This document shows positions 2,709 to 55,288 of a stretch of DNA of 64,000 nucleotides, in pieces (within the stretch, counting starts at the first letter, position 1; each line of letters starts with the position of its first letter). Below the pieces are notes generated by a model, which searched no databases, was not told the DNA's origin, and saw only the letters and a program-made list of their open reading frames with translations. The position numbers and the translations under genes were made by a program. This DNA comes from Chrysomallon squamiferum (Eukaryota > Animalia > Mollusca): assembly GCA_012295275.1 (NCBI GenBank), contig CM022665.1, positions 46,872,001 through 46,936,000 on the forward strand, in the 5' to 3' direction.

Positions 2709-2779
<71 letters not shown>

Positions 2780-5299: not shown

Positions 5300-5347
<48 letters not shown>

Positions 5348-6966: not shown

Positions 6967-7001
<35 letters not shown>

Positions 7002-10000
7002 ATCATTAAATAAATAAATGAAATGGATGAGCTACAAGTCACACGTTACTAATTATCCTATTTTATTTTCTTGTAATGAAATATTAAATGCATGTATATA
7101 TAAAATCATTCAATAATATTAATGAATAAAGAATTATTGTAAAATAATTTTATTGTATAAATGAAGTTATAATAAAGTATATGTACTTTTTTTGTATTTT
7201 GTGAATTTTATAAATCCAAGAACAAAGATTTACTTGCTATGTATATATATATATATAAATATATATATATTTTTTTAACAGCACCAACAGCACCTATAAA
7301 TTTTAATGTAAGTCACATTGACAACAACTACACTGCTGTGATGGTTACTTATGACTGTCCTAAACAAAAAGATGGCAGAAACGGAATTATAAATAGTTCA
7401 TTTTTAGTCTACAACACAACCATGGTATGTACAGACACATATTTTTATTTTATTTTATTTTGATTCCATCTCTTTTTAAAAAAGTACTGAAAACTTATGT
7501 TTTCTTGTGGAATAAGATTATTTTATGTTTCTGTATTGATGTGCAGATTATATAGTTTAAATTTTTTTCTTTTTTTTTCCAGAAAAATATTGATGTTATT
7601 ACGAACAGTATTTCGATTGAAAACAGAAACAACTGTCACTTCTCAGTCAGTGTACCTGTAACAGCAGAAATCAAATATAATTTCTATGTGAGTATTTGCT
7701 GTTTTTGATTTAAAATATTTTACAGTAATATATACAGCAGACTAATAAAGATTTTTAATATATTTGTTGAACATTTGTTTACCTTTCAAATCTTTCTGAT
7801 TAGAGAATAATTATATTGGTGTTTTATTTCATATGTTTAGAAGTTACATCTGCTTCAGTCTTGAATTGTTGTTTCATATATTCATCAGTTTAGAATTTAA
7901 ATTTCAAATCTTTTTTTTTTTTTTTTTTTTTTTTCTATTTGTATAGGTTTATCTGAAGACAGTTTATGATGGAGAAAAGGCTACTACATCATTTTACACC
8001 CCATCTGGACGTATGTTTTAAATATTTCACATTAAATATTTAATTATTCATTTTACATTCATATGATGTTAATTATATGTAGACAAATCATTAAAAGTGA
8101 ATTCAGACTTCATATTCTTGTTTATTAAAAACAAAACAGTTTCAAAACAAAATATTTGTAATTTGTCGAACATGAAATTAAGCACGATATAATCACAATT
8201 ATTGCATTTTCAATTCAACTCTGATCTTTAAGAATATATATATAAATTTAATAAATAGTAAATAACTAACTAAGTAACTAACTAAATAAATAAATAAATA
8301 AAAACAAATAATTAAAAATTCTGTCAATGTTTATATTTTCATACTGGCCATCTTTTTCATTCCTGATTGTTATATGTATGTAATCAATTGTATTTACAGC
8401 ACCAATTCTAGTTATTCAATCTACAATTACGATGCCTATGAAAACCTCTCCATTTGAAAATGGCTTTGTTATGGACATCTGCCCTAAATGTCTTTATCAG
8501 CCAACTACTGGGGAAGTTGTACTAACTGGTATTATTGTCACCAAACAAGACAAACATATAAAAGGTAGAACCTAAATATATTTCTCAAGAATCATTAAAC
8601 ACTATTATGGATTTATTGAAGTATGCATACACCAAAATCTGATATTTTGAAACTGAATATTAAATTCAAAAATCATTTTCAGCAAGCATATTTAACAGGC
8701 ATTTAATTATTCCAACTCATCCTTTTTTATTTTTTTTTTATTTTTTTTAATAACCTTTTGATTATAATTCTTTTGCTGTTATTGAAACTGATGTTCAAAA
8801 TATTTTTATTACTTTTTGGTTTAAATTAATATTCATTTTATTCTTATTATTTTTTCAAAACAGCAAATGTTAGAAAAACATGTACTAAATATTGTATTAA
8901 TATCTGTCATACATTAAATAAATATCCTTTCCTCTCAACAGCCAATCGACATAAAAGAGAACTCAGTTATAAAGATTATGCAAATTATACAAATTGGTTC
9001 ACGGCCAAGCAGAAAAACTTCAAAATTCCTTACAGAGCAACAAATGACAGCTGGATAGACAAAGGTAAAGAGTCTGTTATTTAAACATGTTTATATGAAA
9101 ACCGATGTTTAAATCTATATTGTCACCAGGTTGTAGAGTAATTCAGTAAGGTAATGAAACAGTACAAAATACATGTACAGCTGAAGCAGTTTCAGTGGAC
9201 TTTATTTGCAAGTATCATCTGTGGTAGTTTGCTAGCAATTGGAGCTGACTTTAAAATAAAATAAACGAAAATAAATTAAAACAATTTGTTGTTGCTGAGG
9301 TTTCAGCATATCTCATACATGACCTCGGAATAAAAGTTATTTTCCATCAGACTTGTGAAACTGCTTTATCATCTTTGAAAAGTGAATGAAAGTATTAAAT
9401 GTACTGGTTGAAGTACAGCACAGACGTGCATTTGATTCAGCATATCATATTTATATGTATGTGTGTATGTAATTGAATATTTTGTGTGGCAAATGTTAAT
9501 ACATACTGGGATGATACTGAAACAGTATAAGGTGACTGCATTGTCATTTAAGATAACTTCATTCTATGTTAGACATTTGTCAAATATTAGCCTTAAGTAA
9601 GAAAGAAAATAAAGATCACTGCTGCTTTATTGTATAGTACCTTTAAGTTGATCGTAGTGTAATAAACACATAAATAAATAAATAAAAACTTAACAAATTG
9701 TATAGTTTTTCTTAAATATTATTTTTATTTGTAGATTTAGAAAAATACAAGTATCGAATAGGAGACATGGACTGTTATCAGAGACATGATTTTTGTAATG
9801 GGCCACTACCAGATGGGTTAACATTTGTGTAAGTTTAACATTTAAGTTGTTCAGGAAAATAACTTTGTATCTTTTACACAGTATCTAACAACGAAAAAAG
9901 AACAAAACACGGTATCTATGCAGTTATAGGAACTAATATATAGAAACCTATACAATGAACTCATAAATGAAAAATTGTTTCTTAATAAGCTAACTGGGAA

Positions 10001-13000
10001 GAACACTGGATGTAAAATGTAAATAATCTCTTGCTTCTAATAATTATTTGTTTTCCTTTCTATGGGAAGGTATATTTAAAAGGTCTCATGATGCCTTTTG
10101 ATAGTAATGACATCTGCAAGAAAACATTCACAAAACAAACATAACTACCACTGAACTTATCTGTTCTACACTAATTCATCACACTATACTTTTGATGGAA
10201 TAATTTAATTGAAAATAATTTTAGTTAAGTTTTTTTTTAATTTAACAATTTTGTCTTTGTAATTAGGTAGATTTGAACTCAAATGGTATAATCATTAGCA
10301 TAAACTAGATAAATTTTACTTTACAGAGTTGAAATTTTTGCCAGTACTAAAATTATTTATTTAACTTTAACTTCTCTGAAACATGATGTGGTTATTGTAT
10401 CGTTTCTTGACGAGCTAACTGGGCAGAAAGCTGGATGTAAAATGTAAAACATCTCTTGCTTCTAATAATTATATATGTTTTTATTTCTATGAGAAGGCTC
10501 ATTAAAAAAATTTCTTGATGCTAGCAACACATGTATTTATAACAGCCCATTTTTCCTAGTACTGACATCTACAAGAAAACATTCACAAACCATACCTGAC
10601 TACCAGTGTACTGATTTGTTGTACTCTAATTACATGTACTTCTTCTGGAATAATTTAACTGAAAATAATTTTAAGTTCCCTACTTGCCTTTGTAAGTAGG
10701 ATGATTTGAACTGAAACTATACAATCAGTAGCATGAAGTAAGCAAATACTACTTTTACAGAGTTGAAATCTTTGCCTGTACTCAAGGTGGATGCACCCAA
10801 ATAAGAGGCCCCTCTTATGAAACCAAGAAGAGTAAGTTTAAACAACAAAATTTTATTTTTAGTTTTTTTAATTAAATGTATTTGGAATTATAACTTGAAA
10901 CCAAAATGTATTAAGAAACTACTGCCTATTTCAGTGCATTTACAGTTTTTGAAATTTTTTATTTTGGAAATTTACTATTGTTTCTAGTTTATAATAACAA
11001 ACAAAAATGTAAATTTACTACAGGTGATCAGTTTTAGAAACAAAAATAATTGAGACTGAGAAAAAAATGTCAAACATCTACTAATGTGAAAAAATATTAT
11101 ATCTGTGTTCTACTTACATTAGCTGTTGTGTGTATACAAACACAAATACTCTATACACTCAGTGGTAAATAATAATGTTTATGTGCAACAACATTGATGT
11201 ATTTTTTGATTTACAGAGGAAACCAGCAAAGTTGGTCTGATTACTGGCCTGATTATAGCCTTTGTTGTTATTACTGTTCTGGTCATCGTCATCATCGTGC
11301 TTATCAAAAAACGCAAAAGGTTGATTATAGTTTGTTTTAATATTTTGTTATTGAAATTACTATTCACAATAGCATATTCATCAATGTTTTTAAATGCAGG
11401 TTTCAAATGAAGACTTCAGTGTAATTTATAAAAATTAACCTATCAAGTTTGGAATTGTTGTACAACTGTCTAATAGTTTTCAGTGGATCAACACATATTT
11501 TAAAGAAAATATTTTAAATAAATAAATAAATAAATAAATAAAATACACAAAGAGAACTAAATTTTAAATACAAAATGATTCTTGACTTAATGAACATTTT
11601 TCTTTTATTGTTTCAACACTAAATATTACTTAATAAAACACTTCCAAAATTTTTTAAAAGATTATTCACAAGTTTATAAAATACAGAATAAATTACCATT
11701 TGCTTAAATTATTATATGTAGTGCTAGAAGGTGATGAAAATTAATATTAATAAAATATTTATATTCTTTATACTGCTTTCTGATTTTAACTGGATCATTT
11801 CCAGACATATTAGCCTGTCATATTTAGATTATTGTTTTAAAATTTCATGTTTCAGTAATAATTATGCTGAGCAGGAAGATACGTCTGAAGTAGAAGAACT
11901 TTCACAAATAAACAAAAAAAGGTACTTCATGACATTATCTAAACTTCTAACTAATATTAACTAATAATTCAGTTTTTGGATAACCACTAAAAGAACCGAA
12001 AAACTGCACTGGAAATAAATTTATTTATATTTTCTAATTTTAATATCTGTCATTCATATTAAATTTTCAAAGAAAACAAATTCTGGAATATTCATTGGGA
12101 TTAAAACTTACTTATTATGTCTGACCATTTCTATTATATTTGCCATTGAAATTACTACTCACTACTGAAATACTGATTTGTCACTATCCTAAATAATTAA
12201 ATGATTTGTTTGGATGTTATTTTAAGTATCATTAAAAAAATGTTTAAGATTAAATATAAAGTCATTTAAAAAAATAATTTATCTTTTTCTACAATGAATC
12301 ATATATATATACATACACACATTTTAATTACAGACTAATTTTAAACTGCATATCAATTCCATAATCAGTTCCTTATTATCTTTAAAAAATGTTTATCTTT
12401 TAACACAGACCTATCACAATGGTTGGCTTCAAAGAGCATCTTGAAACATTACACAGAGACTCCAATCTTCTGTTTACACGAGAGTATGAGGTAAGTCTTA
12501 GTTTATAAACCGTTTACACACATTTTACATTCTGCATTATTTGCAGTGTTATATATAAAGCATTTTACAATGTTTATGTTTCTGCTCTTGTTTTATGATT
12601 ACTTTTCTCCCATTCTTGATGCAAAAGATATAAAAATGTGAAATAGGCCAAATAATATGTTGATTTGCAGATGCTAAAATTGGCTAAAAAATTCCAAGGA
12701 AGTGTGTACAAGGAAATGAATCAACAATACAAATTCTGAATGAAGGAGTTAAAAGTGTATGATATACAAGTTTAAAATCATGTCTAAAGTGAGGTGACAT
12801 ATCAACAATATTGGCAGTTCTTAATTAATATATATATTTTTTGGTTCAATTTATTATTATTTTAATTAAAAATATCTTTGTTTAATTTACACAGGACCTG
12901 ACATCTTTATCTCCCAATCATCCAAAATTACATTCAGAAATGGATGGGAATCGAGTGAAAAACAGATATGTCAACATCCTACCATGTATGTAAACCTATT

Positions 13001-13856
13001 GAGAATAATTCTGAGAATATTTCTATGTATTTATTTTCTTTATAATTATCAGAAATTATCTTTGAAATCTGAATTATGCATCATGATGTGTACAGAGATG
13101 AAAAGCTATAATAACAAAATTTCAGCATTTGGATATTTGGAATACTTGTTAGTCTTGTAGACCTTTTTTGAATTGTAGTGGTTTTATGTTACATCACAAC
13201 TCAAAGCAGTGTTTGTATTGACATTTATTTTACTATTACAATGTTTCTGTTTCAGTTGATCACAGCCGAGTAAAACTCCTGCCACTGAATGAGGATGCAG
13301 ACAGAGGATATGATATCACAGACTACATAAATGCTAACTACATCCCTGTAAGTTGTCTTTTTAGTAAATTGATAAATTAGTTACGAAATCTTTATCTTCA
13401 TTTCTTTCCACATTATTTTAAATCGATAAAGTGCTTAAATCATCAAATATAAGAACAGGATCCTGCATTATGCTGGTCAAGACTAAAGCCACACTTTAAC
13501 TGTTAACTAAATCTTATAGCTGCACACACAGGCTTTTAGTTGAATACTCACAGTATATGTTTGGGATTCTTGTACAGATTCATAAGCAGCATTACATTAA
13601 GAAACCATGTGTTGTCAGACTATTGGCAAAACCTGAAATTTTCTGTTGTGAAGCTCTATTGCATCACACACACAGACACAGAATTTATTGTGCCAAGTGA
13701 TTTTTTTCAGGGCTACAAAGGACCTCGTGAATACATTGCTACTCAGGGACCCATGGCAGGCACAATTGCTGATTTCTGGAGAATGATTTGGGAACAGCAT
13801 TCCACCCTTATTGTGATGTTGTCAGATCTCCAAGAGAAAGGAAAGGTATTGTTGAA

Positions 13857-13902
<46 letters not shown>

Positions 13903-16518
13903 TATTATTATTATTATTATTATTAAGTTAATGCTACTGCTATATTACATATTTTAAGATGTCATAACACTTAATTGAATTTCACATAATTAAATTTCAC
14001 ATTTATTGTTTTACTGAAGAAAAGAATAAGACAAGCTTAATGTTCATTTTACATATTCATTTCTTCATTAACTGGACAGATTTTAGAATTAAAGTAACTG
14101 AACTAGACAGTAGTAAGATTTCTTCATCTTTCTCTTTTGTTAATACTGACAAATATTTTTTTTATCACTACAAACAATCATAAAATTGTTATTATATTGC
14201 AGCCCAAGGTAGAAAAGTATTGGCCAGGAAACCTACATGAACCTGTAAAATATGGTGAGATCACTGTTGAACTGACTAGTGATTCTGTACTGAACAAGTT
14301 CACTATCCGATTATTCAAGATATCACTGGTAATAATTTACACATTTTCAATTTTTCTGTACTTCTGTTTCTACATTCTCCTTCAAATAATAACAACAATA
14401 ATAATAATAATAATAATATGATTATTAATATTATTATTATTAATCTTTGCAAGAAATAACATAATTACATAGTGAATGTTATGATAAATTAATTGTAATA
14501 ATTATGCTTACAAAGAAAAGAAAATAAATTGAAGGAATTAACTTTGGCTCTGTAGTTGTTAAAAAGTAAAATAATTTTTTAAAAATTAACTTTTTGTTGA
14601 ACTTTTTTCTATCCTAAAAATGAATGTAATTAATTTGTGAATGTTCCCATTTTAAAAGGCTTCATCACTGATCAGTATTTACACACAATCCACAGATTAT
14701 CAAAAAGAAATATATAAAATTATTATTATTATTATTGTCAGGGCAAAGAGGAGAGACTGGTTAGACAGTATTTCATTCCTGGCTGGGAGGACTACAGTGC
14801 CAACCTGACACCAGAAGATGTCATAAACTTTATTCAGACAATTCGTAGAGAAATTCAACACACATCCGACTCTGGACCTATTGTAGTCCACTGCAGGTTA
14901 GTGATTTAGTACATTAACCTTTTACTTTTATGATTTATGATTTAATGTTTCTACTGCATGTCAACTCCTGTAATTTTTTTAATTATGAGTGATCCTTTCA
15001 ATTGAAGAATAGAATAGCCATGTGCATTATTAACAAGTATTTATGAGGTAAATTGGGAGTCATCAATACCACACAGTTATTTAAATACTGGATATATTAG
15101 TATTTTGCAATTAATTATCTGATACTGATATATCTGTAAACTAAATTTTTATGTAAAAACCAAACAAACCCCACACACTTTCTAACTTAAAGGGCATAAT
15201 CCTAGAACTGAAAAATACTTTAGTAAATTAATACACTGTATATATGCTTATCACTAAAAATATTGTTACAGTAATGATAATAATGATTACTGTGACTTGT
15301 CTAGATATGTATCTGCATATTTGAATAAACTTCAACCTAAAGAATACTAAACTTTTCACTTAAGAACACTAACCTTGACATAGCTTCTGTCATTAACCAT
15401 GTTCACGTATGTGTACAATGAAAGTGGTAAAATTAAAGATCTGAAGTAATACTGATAAAATGTCTTGATAAATAAATAAATATGTTGTTATTTGCAGTGC
15501 TGATATTGTAAATTGTAAGAGATAATTATAAATAAATATACTGTTACTTACAGTGCTTGTGTTGTGAATATGTCAGAGATAATTAATTATAAATAAATAT
15601 ACTGTTACTTACATTGCTGTAAACATGCAACAGATAATTATAAATAAATATACTCTTACTTAAAATACTGATGCTGTAAACATGCAACAGATAATTATAA
15701 ATAAATATACTGTTACTTACAGTGCTGGTGTTGGGAGATCAGGGACTTTCATAGCTCTTGATGTCTTCCAGCAGTGGGTTGATGAACATGGACTTGATGA
15801 TCAGCTTGACATGTTTGAGTATGTTCTGAAAATGAGAAACAACAGACAACATATGGTGCAAACTGAGGTAAATGTTTTTGTGAACTTGCTTGCTAACACT
15901 GATTCATTTTAAACTGACATATGTAATTATATCCATATCCTTAAAAGTCTATTTGTATACAAATCTATGAGAGAACTTACTATTTTATTTTAAAGTGTAT
16001 TTAACAAAGATACACATTTTAAATCTAAAGCTGTCAAATTCTCAACATTTTGCAAAATTTTATTAGAAGAAATGAATGGTATCATCTAATATTTCCTACT
16101 GCAAGGCATTTGTTTAATCAAAGATAATGTTGTATAATTCCAGTACAGAAATACCCAACTAGAGTGATGGTTTGTTTTACATAACTGCAGCATAATTAGT
16201 AGGAGATAGTAGCTGGACCTGTTTCAGATCAGATTTCTTCAGTTTATTTAATGTAACTGTGCTTTGAAATTTAGAAACAGTACATCTTCATCCATGACAC
16301 TCTGAGCGAAATGATAGAAAAGAGGAAGAGTGATCTGTGTCCACCTGACGACAACATCTATGAAAACAGAGATGTGTTTGACAACAACGCATTTCGTAAG
16401 TACTTCCCATGATGAAGTGTTTCTTTTCTTTTTAAATAAAATAATTTTAACCATTCTCCTACAATTTTAATTGTTACCTAAATCCAAACTTTGCACTCTA
16501 CTGAAATTTTTTAATTTT

Positions 16519-16549
<31 letters not shown>

Positions 16550-16848
16550 TGATGATGATGATGATGGTAATAATAATAATAGTAAAAAAATATGCACTGT
16601 ACTGAAAGTTTTTGTTTTAATAATAATAATAATAATAATAATTATAAAATAATTAAATATATAAATATATAAATGAAATAAAAAAGAAAAACAAATAATA
16701 AAACAAAATTTAAAAATCATTTGATTTGATAATATAATTATTAGTGTTGCTATTACTGTTGTCACAGTCGATTTTAATTTTTTCAGAAGCCGAAGAGGAA
16801 ACTTTTTATCAGAATGTTACACTTTCCTCTGGATCAACAGTGATGTAA
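1..16848 (+). CDS. Gene A: R3-subtype receptor-type tyrosine-protein phosphatase (PTPRB/PTPRJ/Ptp10D-like), 5'-partial, 28 visible exons
   Basis: Hand-spliced exons, all GT-AG and in frame: <1-217, 549-839, 1744-1931, 3152-3353, 3735-3905, 4303-4434, 4685-4872, 5677-5878, 6228-6398, 6733-6864, 7282-7424, 7583-7687, 7947-8010, 8400-8564, 8942-9064, 9735-9828, 10761-10831, 11217-11319 (TM), 11856-11921, 12409-12490, 12895-12985, 13256-13347, 13711-13845, 14203-14328, 14742-14896, 15723-15867, 16275-16395, 16787-16848 (TAA). Total 3837 nt. Encodes about 7 FN3 repeats, an FCNGPL stalk, a TM and a single PTP domain (KNRY, DYINA, YIATQGP, FWRMIWEQ, KYWP, VHCSAGVGRSG, QTEKQY), ending YENR...YQNV...STVM*. 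Confidence 0.93.
1744..6864 (+). repeat. Internal tandem duplication of a 4-exon (2 x FN3) block in gene A
   Basis: Exons of 188/202/171/132 nt at 1744-4434 recur with identical lengths and near-identical sequence, including introns, at 4685-6864. Confidence 0.92.
9977..10783 (+). repeat. ~380-bp intronic tandem duplication that includes a splice acceptor and the first ~23 nt of the next exon
   Basis: gctaactggg...ctggatgtaaaatgtaaa...atctcttgcttctaataattat...acttttacagagttgaaat occurs at ~9977-10349 and again at ~10402-10783. Confidence 0.85.
11217..11319 (+). other. Transmembrane exon of gene A
   Basis: ETSKVGLITGLIIAFVVITVLVIVIIVLIKKRK: hydrophobic run followed by a basic stop-transfer, flanked by ttacag and gttgat. 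Confidence 0.9.
12895..16330 (+). other. Classical PTP catalytic domain of gene A (spliced)
   Basis: NRVKNRYVNILPFDHSRVKL, DYINANYI, GYKGPREYIATQGP, DFWRMIWEQ, KYWP, PGWEDYS, PIVVHCS|AGVGRSGTFIALD, MRNNRQHMVQTEKQYIFIH. Catalytic Cys and Arg are intact. Confidence 0.95.
15470..15728 (+). repeat. ~55-bp minisatellite (5 copies) built from the splice acceptor of the P-loop exon
   Basis: Unit gataattataaataaatatactgttacttacagtgct.. is repeated. The last copy is the real acceptor (AG 15721-15722). Confidence 0.85.
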
Positions 16849-20959: not shown

Positions 20960-21266
20960 TTATGTTAGTTTGCTGTAGACATTTTGAGAGGGTGCTGTAG
21001 AACCCAGTCTTTCATATTCATTTTCACCAGCAGCAGCCTGTCTAACGTTAACGTAACCGTCATTTCCGAACGTGCTTGTTCCAATCTGCTGCGTGTCTTC
21101 TGCTTGTTCTGACAGCGGCACATTGTAGATGCCACTGACTTCTCTGTTTGAGAGATTTCCCACGTGACCACCATCTTGGACACTGCTCATCATTTCATAC
21201 TGGTCATTTTGTAAGTCACTGTTTCTTTTTGAAAATCCCCGTTTTGCTCTGTGTCTTCTGACGTAC
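20960..21266 (-). CDS. Terminal exon of gene B: tyrosine-motif cytoplasmic tail
   Basis: ctaacag|g continues the phase-2 TM exon: WYVRRHRAKRGFSKRNSDLQNDQYEMMSS...GIYNVPL...DGYVNVRQAAAGENEYERLGSTAPSQNVYSKLT*. Confidence 0.88.
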
Positions 21267-22701
21267 CTGTTAGAACATAGAATAATTATTTAATCATTTA
21301 TCTAGAAGGCAAATATGCCAACTCATATCCCGAACATTCGTAATAATTTACAGCTGAATCACAGATGAATACTTGGAGTAGGATGTAGCATGATGGTGCA
21401 ATGTTGGTCTCATGGCAAATTGGTTCTAGATTCTAGATTCACCAGTGCAACTATCAATATCTCATGGTTATTTTATAAAACCTACCTAGTCATTGGTATA
21501 TATTTAAAAAGTTCTTTTTTGCTAATTGATAAATGAGTAGTCTGTGATGAAACTGCGTGGGTTTCTTCTGTTTATCAAATGTGTCTTTAATTATAGGTAT
21601 AAAATAAAACCATGTTACAAGCAAATTGTTAATAAAACATTAATGCTATTAATGCAGGCTATTTCAAAACACTGCTTATTATTTTTGTAAGTGTTCCAAA
21701 GTGAAAAGACTTCATCACTGGTCAGTATTTTTAAAAAACAATCCACTGTTTATCAAAAAGAAATTATATCAGAAATAATGTAAAACATATTACTATGATA
21801 AATGAAAATTCTCTTCATTAAATTGTAAACCAAAACAAATTCTCACCAGAACAAAATTCCACTGACAACAACCAACAACAGGAAAAGTATCACTGTCACC
21901 ACAGAGAAGGCTGTAATAGCTGAACTGACTTGATTTTCTTTTTCTGATTTAGCTGTAAAATAAGAAGACATATAATGATGTTTATTTAACACACATATAC
22001 TGACACATACATAAACACACATAGTCATATTCCTAAATAGTCCCCAATGTACACATTTATATACAGATATTTACATAAGCTCATCTTCTCAGACACATAT
22101 TCTCATATACTGACACATGCACACACCTACATAAACACAATACAGACACAAATACACATGCTCACAGATGCACATATTCTGACATGCCAACACATCCACA
22201 ATACATGCAGACTTAAATGTGAATATCAAATACAGTTTAGTCTACACAAACCTGTTTTAGTTTCAAACTGAATTCCAGAACTTTCCTGGCAGCCAACATC
22301 AGTACAAGCAAAGAGAACAGCTCTGAAATCAGACAAACTTGAGTTTTATTTTCTGTTTCTAGAGTCGTAAACTAATAAAAGACAATGACATGATAATATT
22401 TAATAGCCAATCTGTTAATATTTAATTGTTTATATCCTTAAAAAGTTTATATAACTGTAACAGACTAACTAATCTGCTTTACTCAAGTTTGCTGTAGTAA
22501 AAACAAAAAAACAAAAAAAACAAACAAAAACAAAACAAACACGAATGAATGGATGTTTAATGAGAACCCAGCACGAAAATAAAATAACAAGAACAAGTAT
22601 ATTGTTATAATTATTATCTTTGATTTTGCTGTCACCTGTCAAATATTTATTTTATTTTCTGACCTGTTTTCGCGTTTTTATGAAATATAAGTTAACACAC
22701 A

Positions 22702-22754
<53 letters not shown>

Positions 22755-25700
22755 TAACTTATATTTCATAAATAAACATATTTTGAATACATTACTTAAT
22801 TAATAGCAAACTGACATCAATTTCTCCATATAATCTATATAAACAAAACAAACGAAAGTGAGATATGAATAATGATAAAAATTACAAACGTGTATTTGGT
22901 TGCAGGTTTCAGTGGTCCATTACAGAATAAGTGCTTTTCTATGCTACAGTTCATTGATCCCACCACATATTTCTCCAGTTCAAGATCTATAACAACAACA
23001 ACAACAACAATAATAATAATAACAACAACATTAACAATAATGTTAGTAATTACTAAATTTGTACATAGATGTTAGGCACAACAATTATATCAGTCTGTCA
23101 GTCAGTCGATCAATCAATCAATCAACCAGTCAACAAACCTGTCAATCAGTCGATCTGTCTGTCAGCCAGCCAATGAGTCAGTCGATCGATCAATCAGTGT
23201 CTTTCTGAATAGACATAATTTACCTTTATTAATCCAGCTGTCATTTGTAGCTCTGTATGGAAGTTTGAAATCAGTGAGATTTGAAATGTACCAGTTTGTG
23301 TAGGAACTGTAGTAATCTGTAGAGTGAGTGCTTCTGCGAAATCGTCTTTCTGTGAAAATCAATGATTGGTAATCTTATAATAATATGATAATACATTTCT
23401 ATAGATGAAAAGAGTCTAATTTCAGCAGTTCAAAGTATATTGTTTAAACACATAAATCTGAATGATTGAACAGTCTAATAGCATAATTATGACACGTCTG
23501 TAAGTTTCGTAAGAGATTAAAATGTCAGATACGTGAAAAAAATATGCTTCAAATACTTTAATCTGAATAAAAGATATCTCCATAACATGCTGAACATAGT
23601 CCTACACAAAAAATAAACATATACATAAAATAATTTACTTTCAAATTTGAAACATAGAATATGAAAACGGATATTTATAATAATTTAATATGTTCTCAAA
23701 GGATTAAGAATATTTGAAGAACACTCATAAATGGTTAATAAATATTTCAGATAGCGAACGTAACGTAAATGTTTACGTTACCTGCAGTGTAAACATCTTG
23801 TCTAAAAACAATGATTCCAGCCAGTTTTACGTGACCTGCTACGTTTTTGTAGACAGAACGAGGATGGACTATCATTACAAACTGTCTCTCGTACAGAGTC
23901 TCTTCTGAAGGTTTTCTTATTACCGACTCCAAATCTAGTGCTAGAAAAAAAAAAAGTATATTAAAAGTTTATATTTAGAAACTACATTTTAAAACTGAAT
24001 CAGTGTAAAAAAAATCTTTACAACTGTAAGAAAATCTAAACACTTTGAACACTATATACCATTACAACTGTAATAAAATCTAAACATTTTGAATCTTTGA
24101 TTTTATTACAGTGTTAATTCAAAACAAAACTAAACAGTTTCTTTAGAAATTGCCTATACTGGACGAATTGTAATTTAGGAGTAGAAGGATTAATCATAAA
24201 CAAAATTTACATTTTGTTAAGAAAAAAAGAAAAGAAGAAAGCAGTTAAAGTTTTTTGAACTTATTAACATTTTAAAAATGTCAAAACATACATTTGCTTT
24301 CTGTCATTTGGTACATCTTTGATGTTGGTCCAGAATCTAATTCATTGTAAGTAAACACACTGACAGTGTAGTTTGTGAAAGGTAAAAGATGTGTCAGGTT
24401 GTAGCTGAATTCTTTTCCAGCATCATTCAGTACACTGCTGTTAATATTCACTTTGACTGGTGTAACACCTTCACAATGCATATCACTGTCAACCTACAGA
24501 TGAATTGATAAATGTTTTAAAAATTAAGAAGAAAATGTTATTACAAATATTAATGTAACATTTTTACAATATGAAGACAAGCTGAGCTATTTCTAGTAAC
24601 TGTAACTATACTGATCTATTTGTGGTTTTCCATCAAAATATTTACTTTTTCTTTTATTAACAAACCGAAAAGTTACAATAATCATGAAAATAAACAAACA
24701 ATCAAAGAAACAAAAACAACAACAAACAAACAAACAAACAAACAAACAAACATAAATAAAACATAAATAAATAATGTTAATAAAATTATTTGATTTTATT
24801 TAATTAGGTGGTTATTAGAATATCTTGTACTCATAATCTTACCAGAAACTTGAAATAACAACCCCAAAACAAATGAATGTAATATTAATGATTTTTAGTT
24901 TTGTTTATAATGTTTTATTTATTTATTTATTTATTATAGTTGTTCTTTTTTTCTATTCGGATGCTTTGTTCTTCTGATCTAAAATAGAATCACTCAAGAA
25001 AATCCTCCCTCTCCACTATAAAAAGCTATCTTACATTCCTCATGCTGGTGCAGTCACTACAGTAAAATTCAACTTTCTGTTGACAAGTCTGATTTGAAAT
25101 TAGTTGAAGAGTTAAAATGTAAGCACATATAACACCATTGGGACTGTCAGGACGATTCCAAGACACAAACATTGAACTGTAGGTGAAGTCTGATACAACG
25201 AGACTCTTCACTTTACCAGGAGCTGAAATTCAAATATAAATTTGGAATAATTAATATGTAACATGCCATAGTGGAATAAAGATATAAACATCAAATTATA
25301 AATTATTACAATTATTACACCAGTACCTAACCATGTTCAACATTGATCAGTGTTCATCTGTCGTGTTAAGAATGTTTCAGACACAATGTCTAATGTATGT
25401 TTCCACTCAAAGAACTATTTGAAAATGTTATTTTGTGACAGTTTTCATTTAAAACTTTTTCCTTTGGCGATACTTTATATATATATTTATGTATCTATGT
25501 ATGTATGTATGTATGAATGTATGTTTGTATGTATGTATGTATGTATGTATATATGTATATATGTATGTATATGTATGTGTATATATAGTTTCTTTAAAAA
25601 AATAATTTTGTGATTGTTTCAGAATTGCTTTAACAAAGATAAACATTGGAAAAATGCTTAAAGAAAATAGGAAAATAGAAAATATATATACGTCTTAATG

Positions 25701-28700
25701 AGCCACGAATTCCTCTGTATGTGTAAGTTTCACTGTAAACCGAAAAGCTGACTGCAGTGATATGTAAAGTGTAATAATGTTCAGCCGTTATGTCACTGAA
25801 GTACACAAATTGAAGATGTTTTCCTGATGGTCTCACATTATGAGTCTGTTTGTAAGAGTCAGAGTCACCAGTCAAAGTTACTATGTAGTAATCAACAATT
25901 CCTTCAGATTTCTTAAAATACAGTGTGATGTGTGGTGCTGTTAAATTACTTTTTTCTTCATCAAATGGGCCTGGTTTGTCTGGAACTGAAACAAAGGAAA
26001 TATATATATTCTCTCTTCTTTTATGGCAATACTAAAAATAACAGAAAAAACTAAAGTAAACTACAGTAAGTAAGTAATATGATGCATCAAATGAGGGTAC
26101 AATTGATTTATTATCCCGATAAAAAGATAAGAAAAAAATAGTAATAACAAAAGCAATTTACAAATACAAGAAAGACATAGAAAACAGATTAAAAACACAT
26201 CACACAATGAAAAAGGTTTATTAATACTATTTTTATTGCGATTTGTTTATCCTGTACTAGAACTTTAATGCTAAAGACTTGAATAAAAACATTTAATGGG
26301 AAATTTAGATATAACACAGAACGTTGGTGATAGACGTTTTCAGTTAATTATAATAATCAACTCACTATGAGGAATTACAGATTGTGTGTCCTTCGAGAGG
26401 TAATGTAACAGACAGTCCGCAAATACTTGATTTTGCAACATTTAATACACTAGGGAAAGATAAACATTACAAATATGAAAACAAAGAAAACTGCTCAAAT
26501 CACTAATAATTGAGATAATTTTAAATCTCACATGTTCTCTGTGAAAAACTTGCTGAATCTACAAACTGTTCTCTTCCTTCTTGAACAATGAAAGCTCTCA
26601 TTAGAACACTGTACTGTTTTCCAGGTGTCAGATCTCTTATATCACCTGTGTAGTTCTGATAGACAAAATCTGAACCCATGTCAACTGGCGTCCATATAAT
26701 GTCATACCTGGTCACATACTGACCATACAGAGTAGCTGGTGTCCAGTTTACTTCAAGGGAAGTTGTGCCAGTTCTGGACACTTGATTAATTTCAGGTTTT
26801 AATTGAGACACTGCAAACAAAACAAAACTCATTTTGCACAAAGCACTAATGGTGAAAGATAAAATGATATTTAAAATTCTGCAATGAGTAAATTATTATG
26901 AAATTCTTTACGAAAGCCATAGCTAAAATAAAAAGTGAACAGTTGTGTCCAATACTAATATGACCCTAAAAACTGAAAATCAATTAATATTCTTTAGGCT
27001 TAAAATCCTGACTTAGTTTCTACTGTATTTTGTGGATTAGTTTTAGTTTCAATACAGAGACTCTGATTTGATAAATCTCTTAAAAATGTTGACGTTTCAT
27101 TAATAAAATAAATAGCTGTGAAAATTGATGAAGAAAATGCAATCATTATTTGCTCATACAACTGACAAAAACAGTTAGTGGAAAAACAAATTTTACCTGA
27201 TGTACATGTGAGAGGTGTTGAACCCCAAAAGTATCCTTCATTACACAGACATCTTGTAGGATTTGTAAAACTACAAGAGGCATTCGAGTCTAAACATACA
27301 TCTCCAGTTTTACATGGCTCGTTATTTGGTATTTCTACAATATCAATATAATAAAATGTATGGATTTGAATATTTGAAATCTATAAATGCATGCATATAT
27401 CTGAATACTGACAATATTGTTTCTAATGGTCATAACAATTCTTGATGAATAAAGCATTAATATTTACTATTGAATTATTTCATTTTCTAATAGCCTTTGT
27501 AATATGTCTCCATCAGATATGAATGATTAATATTTGATATTTAGAAAAACAATTATGAAAATTATCTATTTTCTTACTTTTGGTTGTGAATTCTGGCGAT
27601 TCGGTGCTGTTAGTACGTTCAGATTTACCATCTTGATCCAGAATTGTTACAATATTTGCTGTGTACAACATTCCCGCTTGCAATCCAGACACAGTTACCG
27701 ATGTTCCAGACAAACTATTCTGACTGCTGCCAACACTGACCTCGTATGAAATGGTGGAATCTGCTGCTTGAGAAATGTAATCTGACTGGTTCCATGTTAG
27801 TTTGACACTCCAAAATGACACTTCCGTGTCAGTAAACGTGTTTGGTTTCAGCTCATCCACTAACAGTAGAAAGTAATACCAAAAGATAGTTTTTTATTTT
27901 ACTTTGATTAAAATAACAAATTAAGATATATATTTTGATGTACAGCGCCTTTATCCTATGACAAAACTCAGATCAAATGTTTACACATTCAGAAATTGTT
28001 TGTAAAGTAGAAGGCTATTTTTTTCGGTGTAATACAGTTTAAAATGAAATAAAAAATACAGAACAAATATGTAACAAATTTTAAACATTGGCTCGTAATA
28101 ACTGCTAATAAAATTGTTTATTTTCTGTTGTAAAGTCTTTATGATATTCAGCTTTTTTTTCTCTGATATCTAAATATATTTTATTTCCAAAACATTAAAC
28201 TAACTACATCTGAAATTTTTATTAATTATCTACCATTATTTTAGATGCATACCAACCTGGATGACACTTTCCATCTTTGTTTCTGTACTTGCCAGAAACA
28301 CATCTACAAACTCCTGTCTCAGAACACTCAGCAGAATACTGTTGTTGTCCACATTCTCTTGTAGGATTAGAACAATTCTTAGTGAGAGCTTGTACTGAAA
28401 GTAAAAGATTATTTATTCATTCATTCATTATTCATGTATACAGTTTCTGGGATTTGGGCTTCTTTTTAATATTTTAAATAACAAATAGCTTAAATGAATG
28501 TTAATATGTTCTTTTAAAGTATTTCTTCATTATTCAAATAAATAAAGAATTGACAACAACACATAGACTGGACTAAATAGAAATAGATAAATACATTTTT
28601 AGAGATTGATAAAGATCTGAGATAATTATTTAAAAGAAACTTTTAATTACTGTGTAGATGTTTTTAAACATATGTGTAACGATGTACATACGGGTACATA

Positions 28701-30953
28701 CATATTCATAGAAACCCCCTCAGTTTATTACGTCATTCGGATCAGACAATCCGTTGTATTCACCTAACCAATACTAGAACTCCTCTTAAAGAAGTATAAT
28801 AAATTGAAGAAGAAACACTACTCACTTGTTGTAACTGTCGCCGTTTTGGGGTTTTTCTGTATTTTGTTGTTGTCATTAACAACTGTTGTTACAGTCACCG
28901 TGTACTCTGTTCCAGGTTTCAAGTTGGTTATTACTGATGTTCTCGATGTACTTGACTCAGTCTTATTGCCATTGTCTGGTGTCCATGATATTTCATACCT
29001 GGATATTACAGAAACATCACCCTCTTGTTGCCATGTCACTGTTGTGTTTTTGCGATTTATATTGATAAAATTGAGGTTCTTCAACTTGAGATAAGTGACT
29101 GTTAAAGAAAACAACAACATTAAGTATGTGATTTACATTGATCAATATATCTTTTACAGGACATAGCAGACAACACATTTAAATATGCTATATATGTATT
29201 TGATATGGTTTTACATTTTGCTAATACTAACCGCAACTGGAAATGTTAAAGGAATAATTATTTGTTTTCAGTCAGTAATTATTTCTTTTTCAGTTGTCTC
29301 ATAAATTTATAATTTATAATTAATTGAAGATTCAAGTTAAGAAAACAAATTTTACCTGATGTACATGTGAGAGGTGTTGGACCCCAGAAGTATCCTTCAT
29401 TACACAGACATCGTGTAGGATTTGTAGAACTACAATTGGCATTCGAGTCCAAACACACATCTCCAGCTTTACACGTCTCGTTATTGGGGATTTCTACAAT
29501 TTAATGAAAAGATGAAGTTTTATAATCAAACAAAACTTTCAGTCTCTAGATCATACTAGCTTTTTAGAATAATATCTATAAAATAAACACTAATATATTA
29601 ATATAATAAAATGTACAGATTTGAATGTTTGAAATCTGTACATGTCTGAATACTGACAAGATTATTTTTAACAGTCATCAAATTTCTTGATGAATAAAGC
29701 ATTAATATTTATTACTGAATTATTTCATTTTGTAATAGACTTTGTAATATGTCTCCATCAGATATGAATTAGTAATATTTGATATTTAGAAAAAAACAAT
29801 TATGAAAATAATCTATTTTCTTACTTTCAGTTGTGAATTCTGGGGATTCTATGCTGTTAGTACGTTCTGATTTACCATCTTGATCCAGAATTGTTACAAT
29901 ACTTGCAGTATACAACATTCCCGCTTGCAATCCAGACACGGTTACCGACGTTCCAGACGAACTATTCTGACTGCTGCCAACACTGACCTCGTATAAAATG
30001 GTAGAATCTGCTGCTTGAGAAATGTAATTTGACTGCTTCCATGTTAGTTTGACACTCCAAAACGACACTTCAGTGTAAGTAAACGAATTTGGTTTCAGCT
30101 CATCCACTAAAAGTAAAATGTAAAGTAAAAAGATTATCTTTTATTTTACTTTGATTAAATAAACAAATTAAGAAATATGTTTCAGTGTACAACGCATTTA
30201 TCCTATGACAAACATCAGACGTAATGCTTACACATTCATAAATTGTTTGTAAAGTAGCAGGTTCTTTTTGTCAGTTTAGTGCAGTTTAAAATGAAACATA
30301 AAGATTAGGTGGCTGGTCTCACGTAACAAATATGTGACAAATTGAAAATGAAAGATTCACTGTTAAACACTGGTACGTAATCACTGGAAATAATGTTACG
30401 TCTTTCAATGTGTATTTTCTATGTAAAGTTTTTAAGATATTCAGCTTTTTTCTCTCACTATCATCTGAATACATTTTATTTCCAAAACATTAAATAAACT
30501 AAACCTGAAACATTTGTAGATTATCTACCATTATTTTAGAAATATACCAACCTGGATGACACTTTCCATCTTTGTTTCTGTACTTCCCAGAAACACATCT
30601 ACAAACTCCTGTCTCAGAACACTCAGCAGAATACTGTTGTCCACAGTCTCTTTTAGGATTAGAACATTTCTTAGTGAGAGCTTGTACTGAAAGTAAAATA
30701 GTATTATTTATTTATTTATTCATTCATTATTCATGTATACAGTTTCTAGGATTTGGGTTTGTTTTTAATATTTTTAATAAAAATGCCTTAGATGAATGTT
30801 AATATATTCTTATAAAGTATTTCTTCAATATTTAAATAATTAAAGAATTGACACAAAATTTGCTCTGGACTAAATACAAATAGATAAGTGAATTTCAAAA
30901 ATTAAGATCTCTGATAATTATTTTGAAGAAACCTTTTATTACTCTCTATCTTT

Positions 30954-31010
<57 letters not shown>

Positions 31011-34000
31011 CTTAGAAAGTGGAAATGTGTAAAAAAAATTAATAATAACATTGTTTTAAATTTAAATGATTTATTACAAATATAATTTTTACTTTTCACA
31101 CCGTATATTTTAGCTGTCTGCTTTATTCAAAATCAAGTAGAAAATTCTTTATGCAACGCTGTACATACGTGTACATATATATTCATGAAAAAGAAATTAA
31201 TATTAGCTCGTTACATCTTTCAAATCAGTCAGTCTGATGTGTTCACGTAACCAGTCGTAGATCCTCTCTTAAAGTCAGAATAAAAAAAGTGAAGAAACAC
31301 TACTCACTTGTAGTAACTGTCGCCGTTTGGTTAATTTTCTGTATTTTCATGCTGTCATCAATAACAGTTGTTACAGTCACTGTGTACTTGGTTCCAGGTT
31401 TCAACATGGTTATTACCACTGATTCATTTGAGGTACTAGATTTATTCTTACTGCCATTGTCTGATATCCACGATATTTCGTACCTGGATATTACAGAAAC
31501 CTCACCCTCTTGTTGCCATGTCACTGTGGTGTTTTCACGATTTGTATCGATAAAACTAATCTTCTTCAGCTTCAGATGATTGACTGTTAAAGAAAAACGA
31601 TATTTACAGTGTGTCCTTGTATGTCAGAGTGTATGTCACTGCATTCTATACTTCCTTTGCAGGATATACACGTTTATGTTGCTGCATATCAGTAGCACTG
31701 ACGATGTTTCAGCTAAGTTTAACATTGCTTACAGAACTACTGACCACAGAGGGCCATTTATCTCCATATTTTAAATAAATAATCTTTTATTCTTCACTGG
31801 CCTTTCAAATATCACATTTTCATGTGTGAATTTAAATTTAAAGGCGTTAAATAAAAAAGCAAAAAATGCATGTACATTAGTTTACAGCCACCAGAGCCAG
31901 ACAGATTTTTCATTTTAAACAGACTGTTCAGAGAATTACCTTGGATTATGCAGATTATATACAGAAGTATTTCTTTAAATGATTATTCAGATTTCCAAAA
32001 CGGAATTACCTTGGATTATGCAGATTATATACAGAAGTATTTCTTTGAATGATTATTCAGATTTCCAAAACGGAACTGAAGTACAAATGAGAGATTGGGC
32101 ATAAATTATTAATTCATTTGGTTTGTAACATTTTCCATCTAGATATGAAATATTAGGAAAATTTGTAAATTATACCTGGTGTACAGTTGACAAGTTTTGG
32201 ACTCCAGAAGAATCCTTCATTACACAGACATCGTGTAGGATTTGTAGAACTACAAGAGGCATTCGAGTCAGAACACACATCTCCAGCTTTACATGTCTTG
32301 TTATTGGGTATTTCTACAATTTAATGGAAAGATGAAATTTTACAATCAAACTAAATTTTCAGTTGTTTTATAATAATACCAAGCATGAGATTATGAATTC
32401 ATTGTTCTTAAATTTTCACAAAAGTATTTAATTGTTTTATAGAATGTAAAATAAATACAAGAGGCATATATGATAAAATGAATAGATTTGAATATTTGAA
32501 TCTATAAATGTACGCACATATCTGAATACTGACTATATTGTTTCTAATGGTCATAAAAATTCTTGATGAATAAAGCAGTAATATTCATTATGGAATTATT
32601 CCATTTTGTAATAGGCTGCCTAATATATCCCCATCAGATATGAATGAGTAATATTTGAAATTTAGAAAAGCAATTGTGAAAATAATCTATTTTCTTACTT
32701 TCAGTTGTGAATTCTGGGGATTCTATGCTGTTAGTACGTTGAAATTTACCATCTTGATCCAGAATTGTTACAATACTTGCAGTATACAACATTCCCCCTT
32801 GCAATCCAGACACGGTTACCGACGTTCCAGACGAACTATTCTGACTGCTGCCAACACTAACCTCGTATGAAATGGTAGAATCTGCTGCTTGAGAAATATA
32901 ATCTGACTGGTTCCATGTTAGTTTTACACTCCAAAACGACACTTCCTTGTAAGTAAACGAGTTTGGTTTCAGCTCATCCACTAACAGTAGAAAGTTATAT
33001 TAACACATAATCTTTTATTTTACTTTGTTTAAATAAACAAATTAAGAAATATGTTTTGATGTACAACGCATTTATCCTATAACAAACATCAGATGAAATG
33101 CTTACACATTCACACATTGTTTGTAAAGTAGCAGGCTCTTTTTGTCAGTGTAGTAAATTTTAAAATGAAATATAAAGTTCAGGTTGTTAGTCTCACGGAA
33201 CAAAAATGTGACAAATTGAAAATGTTAAACATTGGCACGTAATCACTGGAAATAATGTTACGTCTTTCAGTGTTTATTTTCTCTTCTAAAGTTTTTAAGA
33301 TATTCAGCTTTTTTTCTCTCACTGTCATCTGAATACATTTTATTTCCAAAGCATTAAACTAACAAAATCTGAAACATTTGTAGATTATCTACCATTATTT
33401 TAGAAATATACCAACCTGGATGACACTTTCCATCTTTGTTTCTGTACTTCCCAGAAACACATCTACAAACTCCTGTGTCAGAACACTCAGCAGAATACTG
33501 TTGTTGTCCACAGTCTCTTGTAGGATTAGAACATTTCTTGGTGAGAGCTTGTACTGAAAGTAAAATAATATTATTTATTCATTTATTATTTTACTATTCA
33601 TGTTTCTAGGAATCATTTTTTTAAATATTTTAAATAAATAGCTTAGATTAATGTTAATATATTCTTCTAAAGGATTTTTTCATCTTTCAGATAATTATAA
33701 AATTGACAACAAAACATGTAGTAGACTAAAAACAAATAGATAAGTTAATTTTAAGAATTGATAAAGATCTGAAATAATTTATTGAAGAAAACTTTTATTT
33801 CTATGTGTGTACTTATATATCTTAGAAAGCTGAAATGTGTAAAAGAAATTAATAAAAACATTGTTTTAAATTTAAAAAGTAATTGATATATTACAAATTT
33901 AATATTTTATTTTTACACCATATTATTTGGCTGTCTGCTCTGTTGAATATCATAAAAAACATTGTTTATGCAATGATGTACACACATGAACATATATATT

Positions 34001-37000
34001 CGTGAAAAAATATAAAATCAGTTTCTTACATTATTCAAACCATAGTCTGATGTCTTAATCTTTCCAATACTAGAACCCTCTTAAAGATAACATAAAAAAA
34101 TTAAGAAACACTACTCACTTGTTGCAATTGTTGCTGTTTTGTTAATTTTCTGTATTTTCATGCTGTCATTAATAACCGTTGTTACAGTCACTGTGTACTT
34201 GGTGCCAGGTTTCAGTTTGGTTATATTTGACGTGTTCGATGATGCTGACTCATTCTTGCTCCCCTTGTCTGGTGTCCATGATATTTCATACCTCGATATT
34301 ACAGAAGTATCACCGTCTTGTTGCCATGTCACTGTGGTGTTTTCACGATATGTATTGATAAAACTGATGTTCTTCACCTTCATACGAGTGACTGTTAAAA
34401 AGAAAAAGGTGTTTTAACAATGCCTATGTGTGTCACTACGTTCAATACTTCCTTTACAGGGCATGTTGCTGTGTATCTGAACTGTTGGTGATGTTTCAAC
34501 TACGTTTAATGTTGCTTGCAGAACTACTGACCACAGAGGGACAGTTAAATAAATCTTATTCTTAACGAGCTTCTCAAATGTAACATTTTCATGCATAAAA
34601 TTAAATATAGAACTGAATCAAGAAACAAGAAATGCATGTACATTTGTTTACAGCCACCAAAGCTGGTCAGATTTTACATTTTAAACAGACTGTTTTCAGA
34701 TAAAGAATTCAAATCAGATCTAGTGATAAAATTCCACAACAAATATTTTTTTATATATACTTTACTGAAAACAAAAGTTCAGAGAATTATATTGGATTAT
34801 GCAGATTCCTACATAATTATCTCTTTAAATGATTGTTCTTACTTCCAAAACAGAACTGAAGTACAATTGAGATTGGGCATAGATTGCTAATTTATTTAGT
34901 TTCTAACATTTTATTAATGAATGAAATATTTTGCGAACTGATAAATTATACCTGGTGTACAGTTGAAAAGTTTTGGACTCCAGAAGTATCCTTCATTACA
35001 CAGACATCGTGTAGGATTTGTAGAACTACAAGAGGCATTTGAGTCAGAGCACACATCTCCAGTTTTACAAATCTCGCTAATCGGTATTTCTGTAATTTAT
35101 TTTAATATACACTTTCTAATCATAAAACCAAATATGTCAAGATCTTTTTATAATTTTTTGAAATAATGAAATAATGGTATCTTTAATAAAAATCGTGTTT
35201 ATTTTTCATGTTGAGAATTGTATAACCATTTACCTTTCTGTTTACATTTATCAACAGTTTGATATTCATTAACTAGGACATATACATATAATTATTACAT
35301 TCAACAAGCAATTGCTTGAAGATTTCACGTTTTAAATATAATATTTTCTGCTGGTAATTTTTTAGTCTTTGTAACTTAAAATATATGTTTCCTTTGATAA
35401 CATGTTCTACATTCAGAATTTTTATTTTATTTTTCGCTGTGTTAATTTAGTAATTATTCCGCCAACAGAATCTGTAAATAGACATAAGAATATATACATA
35501 TATATATATAACGTTTACTATTTCACTGAAGATTTCGCAATGAGAATAAATTATTTTCCTCAGCTTCTTTATTTTAAACGAATTATTTTCACATATATTT
35601 GAAGCCCAAGATCAGCAGAACACAAATACATGAAATATGACAAAACAAATTATTACTTTGTGTTGTAAATTCAATTGTTTTGTTGTTGAGAACTTCAGTT
35701 TTTCCATCTTGTTTAAATATTGTGATAAAAGTAGCAGAGTATGACTTTCCAGCTTTCAAATTCTGCACTGTCACTGATTCTCCGATTGTACTGTTTGAGA
35801 GGCTTCCAGGATTCACAGTGACGTGGTAACTGATGGAATAACTAGGTAATTCAGGAAGATTTGCTGATGATTTCCATGTAAACTTTTCACTCCATGGTGA
35901 ATCTTGGCTGTGATTGAAAGAACTTGCCTGAATCTCTTTAACTGAAACACAAATATTATCAGTTATAATTTTGTCAGACCTAAACATAAAACATAAGGTT
36001 GTAATTTGTGTCTGATAAATAAGTACGCTTTTTCAGTATTTTGTTTGTTTGTTTACTTGCTTGTAAATTTTGACTGAAATCAAATAACTAACTGCTTTGA
36101 CTAACAAAACTTGCACATAATCATTCAACTGAAAACAAATACGCGAGTTAATCTTGATACTGGTAATACGATGATGTAATATTTACATAAAAAATATAGT
36201 TAGGTGTGATATTGTACGTTTTGATATTATACACAGAATACAGTGGATAACAAAGTGAATGGAGATTAATTCATTTCTTCTTGATGTATCAGTTATCTAA
36301 TTTAGGTTTTGGAAGTTTGTGTGTGATTGCGTGTGTTTCTGCCTGAGAAAATGAACTTACATTTTCTTGATATAAGAGCTACATTACAATAATCTATATG
36401 GATAAAGAAATATTTCACTTGTATTTATATTGTTGGATGAAAATATCTTATATATTTATAAAATGTTTTTTAAATCTTGACTCTAAAAAGGTGTAAAGTT
36501 GATATAAATATGATTAATAAAACTCGTAATTTATTTGTATCCTTACAAAATACAGAACACCTTTCAGTTAACTGCTGTCAAAATGAACATAGAATATGAT
36601 GAACTCTCTATTTCAATTTTATTTTAGGCTGATTCCTAGCATCTTGCACTCTTATCCTTTTAGTTACAAGCTAACAAAAATAACTTCATATATTCTCCAA
36701 GGATGATATTAAAATCTACAAAAATGGTGTCCTTAAGAGATGTCTCAAAAAATCTCAAACGTGACCAGTGTCCACTAGTTTTTAGTGAAAGACAGACAGA
36801 GATACCTTTCATTAAGATTTCGCCCCAAAATGAAGAGACTGGCACAGATATATTTTTTAACACAGAAACCTATTTATTAAAGCAACTTACTAGGTAAACA
36901 GGTTGCGTCTTGTTGATAGTAGCCATCACTACACAGACACACACTGTTGTTACAGTAACTGTTGTCTACTACAGATGTACAGTTGTTGTCTGTTCCACAC

Positions 37001-39631: not shown

Positions 39632-39959
39632 CTACATTTGCTTTAGATTGCTGTAGACATTTTGAGAGGATGTCGCAGGACCCAGTTTTTCGTATTCATT
39701 TCCACCAGCAGCAGCCTGTCTAACGTTAACATAATCATCATTTCCAAACGTGCTTGTTTCAACCTGCTGCGTGTCTCCTCCCTGGTGTGGCACATTGCAG
39801 TAGTAGCCACTGACTTCTCTGTTTGAGAGATTTCCAACGTGACCACCAGCTTGGACGTTGCTCGGTCCACTCATCATTTCATGCTGGTCATTTTGTGAGT
39901 TCACAAAGTCACTGCTTCTTCTTGGAGATTCCTGTTCTGCCCCGTGTCTTCTGAGATAC
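39632..39959 (-). CDS. Terminal exon of gene C: tyrosine-motif cytoplasmic tail
   Basis: WYLRRHGAEQESPRRSSDFVNSQNDQHEMM...GYYCNVPH...DDYVNVRQAAAGGNEYEKLGPATSSQNVYSNLKQM*. Confidence 0.88.
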
Positions 39960-41655: not shown

Positions 41656-41720
<65 letters not shown>

Positions 41721-44225: not shown

Positions 44226-44269
<44 letters not shown>

Positions 44270-53129: not shown

Positions 53130-53166
53130 CTACAGCAGAAAGCTAAATAATTATACAAAGTATATG

Positions 53167-55256: not shown

Positions 55257-55288
<32 letters not shown>

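Follow-up and report, generated by a model that had tools for sequence, protein, structure and literature searches.

An ITAM-like tyrosine pair in the tails of two phosphatase-less relatives of an R3-type receptor phosphatase in Chrysomallon squamiferum

Introduction

Can a receptor phosphatase and its own copies without the enzyme form a pair of opposing receptors? A locus of Chrysomallon squamiferum raises this question: two of its genes end in a tyrosine pair resembling an ITAM, and a related gene next to them encodes a phosphatase. The window analysed here is the whole stretch of 64,000 nucleotides (GCA_012295275.1, contig CM022665.1, forward-strand positions 46,872,001 to 46,936,000), and all coordinates are positions in it.

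The known paired receptors belong mainly to the vertebrate Ig and C-type lectin families, both arms borrowing their enzymes. Taken alone, the motif would be an ordinary invertebrate tyrosine tail. It is the gene cluster around it that makes a signalling role of the two tails plausible.

Results

Four related genes

The window is intron-rich, with about 21–37% GC per kb, and holds four related genes.

1–16848, plus strand: gene A, 28 exons and 1278 aa modelled, 5′ end beyond the window; FN3 array, juxtamembrane domain, transmembrane stretch (TM, 11217–11319) and one phosphatase domain
12409–16395, plus strand: phosphatase exons of A, with the catalytic Cys loop, KNRY and Q-loop present and W-E-D as the WPD loop
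20960–38551, minus strand: predicted gene B, with 26 exons encoding 1658 aa; a signal peptide precedes EB/EGF-like modules that alternate with FN3 modules, and the juxtamembrane domain, TM and tail follow
20960–21266, minus strand: terminal exon of B, the entire 101-aa cytoplasmic tail, with a phase-2 acceptor and without a phosphatase domain
21847–21952, minus strand: transmembrane exon of B, a hydrophobic stretch without charged residue
22252–23940, minus strand: juxtamembrane R3-type long FN3 domain of B, four exons, with the C-x(n)-C-NGPL signature and a furin-type site
39632–50632, minus strand: predicted gene C, 17 exons and 897 aa, following B's plan with fewer repeats
39632–39959, minus strand: terminal exon of C, the entire 108-aa cytoplasmic tail
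40458–40563, minus strand: transmembrane exon of C
41029–42641, minus strand: juxtamembrane R3-type domain of C, with the features of that of B
53620–59619, plus strand: gene D, the fourth paralog, arranged head to head with C; its signal exon and distal modules are followed by an N gap at about 59945–60144, and its tail lies outside the window

The introns of the B and C models, predicted from splice sites, are GT-AG with consistent phases, and neither model contains an internal stop. In both models the motif exon splices in frame to the transmembrane exon, which places the motif in the cytoplasm. The stop of C lies 1.1 kb from the start of B, and the two are about 90% identical (176/195) over the juxtamembrane domain and TM. 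By their sequences, B and C are evidently recent paralogs.

The ectodomain of B contains about three tandem 2.8-kb blocks (27183–35099, minus strand), in which Cys-rich and FN3 exons alternate and which are 79–85% identical including introns. The acceptor of the second juxtamembrane exon (23373–23376, minus strand) is AAG in B and TAG in C. Gene A has a 380-base intronic duplication (9974–10785, plus strand), 71% identical and overlapping the start of the fourth juxtamembrane exon. Between or within C and D, an 85-codon acidic open frame (52885–53142, minus strand) has, near 53126, a plausible acceptor, and there may be an exon upstream of it (54997–55182, minus strand); Pfam gave no match for this frame.

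Derivation of B and C from R3 receptor phosphatases

Genes A, B and C have in common the C-x(n)-C-NGPL juxtamembrane signature, the furin-type site and the intron phases 1,1,2,1,2 through to the tail. The signature and the phases are described for the R3 phosphatases (PMC5336234, PMC5242461), and the accessible part of one account gives the signature only for these and for uroplakins 2/3 (PMC5242461). The common signature and phases thus mark B and C as R3 derivatives, while the Pfam PTP_tm match to B's juxtamembrane domain is weak (E 0.056). They appear as derivatives rather than members of the class: the single phosphatase domain is found in A only, and B and C have EB/EGF-like exons where R3 ectodomains are FN3 only.

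Five exons of A match the Pfam phosphatase family; four of these matches exceed the curated cut-off and the fifth has E 0.0045. The five are the only such exons in the window by tblastn and Pfam. Hidden phosphatase exons for B or C were considered and rejected, tblastn finding them in A only. In the predicted B and C, a single tail exon follows this same phase-2 intron and stands in place of the phosphatase exons.

The source of this exon was sought in A's cytoplasmic exons and in other DNA of the window, and both were rejected by tblastn, in which the two tails have no similarity to A's cytoplasmic exons. Against the cytoplasmic ends of the Haliotis phosphatase, the tails reach local scores of 15–27. 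Two C-terminal YxN sites occur in A. Its WPD loop (14742–14896, plus strand) reads W-E-D, against W-Q-D in P0024, a relative from Haliotis asinina; the acid remains but the proline does not.

As described (PMC5336234), the R3 phosphatases PTPRB/J/H/O/Q and Drosophila Ptp10D resemble these genes in the FN3 ectodomain, the long juxtamembrane FN3 domain with its signature and phases, and one TM. They resemble A also in the one catalytic domain and the C-terminal YxN sites, although its W-E-D loop differs. B and C differ from them in having no catalytic domain and in alternating EB/EGF-like modules with FN3.

Another likeness is with CionaNocat.1/2 and the uroplakins UPK2/3, which are R3-derived, have lost the phosphatase and have a short tail after the phase-2 intron (PMC5242461). 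This group also has a phosphorylatable tyrosine, Tyr249 of frog UPK3a. It is of separate chordate origin, however, and the accessible part of that paper describes neither an ITAM-like pair nor an ectodomain match with a catalytic neighbour. By analogy, CionaNocat and UPK3 offer a chordate precedent for the kind of phosphatase loss that B and C suggest.

Tyrosine pair at the tail ends

The pair that drew attention to this locus, and a third tyrosine that the original prediction had overlooked, are placed as follows.

20966–21016, minus strand: ITAM-like pair of B, YERL-x9-YSKL, tail residues 84–100
39644–39694, minus strand: ITAM-like pair of C, YEKL-x9-YSNL, the distal half doubling as a YxN site
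21044–21055, minus strand: YVNV in B, 13 residues before the pair and kept in C
39722–39733, minus strand: YVNV in C, 13 residues before the pair

The residues, coordinates and strand of the pair, its 9-residue spacer and the presence of both tyrosines and both leucines in B and C were all found as predicted. The strict ITAM form has a spacer of 6–8 residues, and a pattern scan gave no match to it in the tail of B or C. A relaxed consensus is D/ExxYxxL/I x6-12 YxxL/I (PMC6994640, PMC13358205). Both tails have its core, Yxx[L/I] x6-12 Yxx[L/I], with the spacer of 9. With the acid at −3 of the first tyrosine included, B matches fully with Glu and C does not, having Gly; Glu is at −1 in both.

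Of 20,000 shuffles per tail, 0.75% for B and 0.18% for C contained the core pattern Yxx[LI]x6-12Yxx[LI], so the YxxL pair is unlikely to come from composition (P 0.0075 and 0.0018). The prediction that the distal tyrosine, with Asn at −2, is not an ITIM also stands: neither tail has a match to the ITIM or ITSM (S/I/V/L or T at −2 of the tyrosine), the −2 residue being Asn or Asp.

YxN is the consensus of Grb2-type SH2 docking sites. At the distal site, Leu+3 is common to B and C and the +2 residue is K in B and N in C. This +2 change with Leu+3 kept fits an ITAM rather than a YxN site, as one observation. On the other hand, YVNV stands exactly 13 residues upstream of the pair in both tails, so that three tyrosines have one 13-residue period and the pair may belong to a general docking array.

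A 39-nt tandem duplication was tried as the source of this period and rejected, being within the codon-shuffle null. The composite YxN-YxxL-YxxL/I is rare in shuffles of the B, C and abalone tails, but the pattern was devised post hoc and is not counted. The tail is likely disordered. In both genes its exon also has another open frame running across it, 73 codons long in B and 75 in C (20965–21186 and 39643–39870, minus strand).

Selection and drift in the tail

The original prediction took the conservation between B and C as a sign of selection on the motif, and this part fails. The tail has a dN/dS of 0.70 (bootstrap 0.36–1.66) and the 17 motif codons 1.14; the transmembrane and signal exons have 0.28 and 0.20. 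Tail identity is 72% (71/99 aligned codons) and that of the motif codons 65%. The differences fall on codon positions 1, 2 and 3 as 16, 17 and 15, with no third-position excess.

In neutral simulations at 14–22% divergence, all four anchors were retained in 32–16% of runs. DNA identity of B and C is 84% in the tail exon, 80% in the 3′ flank and 75% in the upstream intron. With two paralogs only, and recent ones, selection on four residues cannot be demonstrated. The dN/dS check, run on this pair only, thus gives no constraint at the level of the motif and leaves standing the retention of the frame.

The tail reading frame is supported as retained for coding. Its indels are in frame in 3/3 cases, compared with 4/14 in four flanking non-coding blocks (P 0.02–0.04), and no stop precedes the last anchor in either tail (neutral P 0.10–0.22). 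Residues 63–80, containing YVNV, have one B–C difference. Of the five tyrosine motifs of B beyond the membrane edge, four are still in C, and the fifth, YEMM, is His in C.

The stop of B had been seen as sparing the motif. TAA in B is indeed opposite CAA in C and followed by ATG TAG, and it lies after the motif. Its weight as evidence is modest because nonsense and read-through are both plausible directions: a nonsense change would land after the last Leu in 5.9%, and after a read-through the next stop would come within two codons in 12%.

Outside the tail, three distal FN3 exons (24292–25985 in B, 45369–47848 in C, minus strand) have B–C dN/dS of 1.13–1.41, compared with 0.16–0.64 in the juxtamembrane exons, on few sites. 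Diversifying selection on a ligand surface in these exons is possible.

Ectodomain match of A and C

The ectodomains of A and C share a long block.

5334–8212, plus strand: block of A with 76% identity to C 45928–42807, counting introns

The similarity runs to A 8212 and C 42807 and ends in the intron that precedes the first of the juxtamembrane exons. Amino-acid identity is 82% (276/335) in the distal part and 42% (77/184) in the juxtamembrane part and TM (Fisher 1e-20). By exon, 12 of 13 distal comparisons have 73–93% identity with pS 0.00–0.28, the most distal has 56% with pS 0.35, and the four juxtamembrane exons and TM have 30–57% with pS 0.61–0.79. The close distal match with a diverged membrane-proximal part suggests that the membrane-proximal and signalling parts of A and of B and C split long ago and that exchange or copying of the distal ectodomains is recent.

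The sharp break and the patchy pS of 0.00–0.35 fit gene conversion, and a one-off chimeric duplication could account for the break equally. A and C are linked genes with near-matching ectodomains and divergent intracellular parts, as paired receptors are. The vertebrate pairs likewise have linked genes, ectodomains kept similar by gene conversion and divergent intracellular parts (PMC13358205). In these, however, the inhibitory member recruits a phosphatase via ITIMs and the activating member borrows DAP12 (PMC13358205), whereas here one member is itself the phosphatase and the others have a built-in ITAM-like motif and a TM free of charged residues.

Relatives in other animals

The closest named relatives are from Gigantopelta aegis (49–52% to gene C) and Haliotis (33–36%), and the two closest Gigantopelta proteins are partial, ending before the membrane. 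A HMMER search with the FN3 exon alignment gave 62 protein matches, 30 of which were looked up by name; a word-based search with the same alignment gave none. The matches include a full Haliotis asinina phosphatase with the same plan.

In Haliotis rufescens, XP_048239825.1 carries the juxtamembrane signature and a TM but lacks a phosphatase; its tail is 97 aa long. This abalone tail has YVN, then YEQL-x10-YGQI with Asp at −3 (shuffle P 0.011), and also a YQN site. The protein is the one with such a pair among the eight phosphatase-less membrane proteins of the 62 matches, and it alone of the eight matches C's juxtamembrane domain. At least two of the eight resemble a truncated phosphatase or a false helix.

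The tail comparison rests on three tails, of B, C and abalone, and the abalone alignment is unreliable (shuffle P 0.04 to B and 0.19 to C); the abalone model has neither a signal peptide nor one of the juxtamembrane segments. In 7-row trees, the distal block joins the two Haliotis proteins (100/100) and the juxtamembrane region puts B and C with A (88/91, below the tool's bar). These trees fit either independent phosphatase loss or homogenisation within each lineage.

Searches with the tails gave no relatives, neither in the protein collection, among longer or near-length entries, nor in metagenome contigs or Pfam, and the juxtamembrane exon has no match in metagenome contigs. In the ESM Atlas, the C-terminal part of the abalone protein scores at most 0.80, and the B tail scores 0.90, at low recognition, to an unnamed cluster of 51 whose members of known origin are mostly from Mollusca; both are leads only. 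An amphioxus FN3-only receptor, P0011, has a multi-tyrosine tail end with two YxxL sites 4 residues apart.

Discussion

Proposed role of the tails and alternatives

We propose, at a little below an even chance, that the tails of B and C are phosphotyrosine docking tails whose last pair would be a Syk-type ITAM opposing A. The relaxed consensus, the cytoplasmic placement, the non-ITIM form and the similar abalone pair speak for the ITAM reading; the selection result and a spacer outside the strict 6–8 speak against it. B and C would then likely be the activating counterparts of the phosphatase A.

Ligand clustering would quite probably let a Src-family kinase phosphorylate the three tyrosines spaced by 13. 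The phosphorylated terminal pair might bind the tandem SH2 domains of Syk or Shark, a step on which we are almost evenly divided, and YVNV might bind Grb2. A, seeing the same ligand, would strip the phosphates as an eraser, and sequence exchange would keep the ectodomains matched; this full paired function is rather doubtful.

Receptors of this kind of signalling are known in invertebrates. The oyster two-SH2 Syk co-precipitates with the receptor CgIgR, which carries an ITAM with a spacer of 8 (PMC6994640), and Draper in flies works via Src42A and Shark (PMC8092387). Like the proposed B and C, both span the membrane once and have an ITAM of their own that Syk or Shark reads, but their ectodomains are of the Ig or EGF/NIM type and not derived from a receptor phosphatase. 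In a preprint model, the tandem-SH2 families are similar in geometry and all may act on sites that lie close together (PMC12132298), so the distance between the sites is not in itself specific to Syk.

The tails might instead be a general multi-tyrosine platform for single-SH2 proteins, where Grb2 or a Src-family kinase would dock at sites of the YxN-hydrophobic type and the ITAM pairing would be a by-product of even spacing. The well-kept stretch around YVNV suits such a platform, as do the three YxN sites of C (shuffle P 0.014), the resemblance of C's last site to the C-terminal YxN of A and of R3 enzymes (PMC5336234), and the YVN and YQN of abalone. But the distal tyrosine of B has lost its Asn at +2 and retained Leu+3, both terminal sites are YxxL in B and C, and the proximal one has no Asn, and we consider the platform unlikely.

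Site spacings of about 24–26 residues are found in receptors that bind SHP2. YVNV and the last tyrosine, 26 residues apart, fall in this range, and through such non-canonical sites the tail could recruit SHP2/Corkscrew and be inhibitory. A hydrophobic residue occupies +3 at 4/6 tyrosines per tail, and a phosphatase recruited in trans after the domain loss would preserve the sign of the signal. With Asn or Asp at −2 and neither tail matching an ITIM or ITSM, such recruitment seems quite improbable.

Signalling by the tail might also be dispensable, if B and C were decoy or adhesion receptors competing with A for ligand or pairing with A, the tail a mere spacer and the motif incidental or decaying. 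A tail dN/dS compatible with 1, the absent third-position excess and the loss of YEMM in C are what a decaying tail would leave, and the R3-derived Uroplakin-2 proteins lost the tail entirely (PMC5242461). Yet the frame survives three indels, the pattern is rare in shuffles, abalone has a similar tail and most tyrosine motifs of B persist in C, which makes a mere spacer improbable.

Wider setting

Beyond the docking-tail reading of B and C, a broader model is that gastropods made an activating/inhibitory pair from one receptor phosphatase family, in which the enzyme would inhibit, the phosphatase-less copies with an intrinsic Syk-binding ITAM would activate, exchange would match the ectodomains, and which would have arisen in at least two snail lineages. 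We hold this model as tentative and rather doubtful. If true, pairing a receptor phosphatase with its own ITAM-bearing copies would reach the same logic as the known pairs by a different route. It would also give a testable model for gastropod clusters of receptor-phosphatase-like genes in which some genes have catalytic domains and others do not, certain of these clusters lying at parasite-resistance loci.

In the literature covered, mostly open-access main texts, we found no report of phosphatase-less R3 paralogs with ITAM-like tails in molluscs. Families of ITAM/ITIM receptors are described in Botryllus (PMC11507803). Each ingredient has precedent, and the combination appears new.

The resistance-locus clusters of Biomphalaria, SudRes1 and LG5R, are also gastropod receptor clusters with and without phosphatase domains; they differ in having MEGF/galactose-binding ectodomains and tandem phosphatase domains (PMC12297450, PMC13712769). 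The word ITAM is absent from the accessible text of the latter paper (PMC13712769). Four other proteins of Biomphalaria glabrata, P0053, P0057, P0093 and P0102, have neighbouring locus tags (BgiMline_016853-016858) and contain the divergent FN3 domain; in P0057, P0093 and P0102 there is also a TM, with a short tail.
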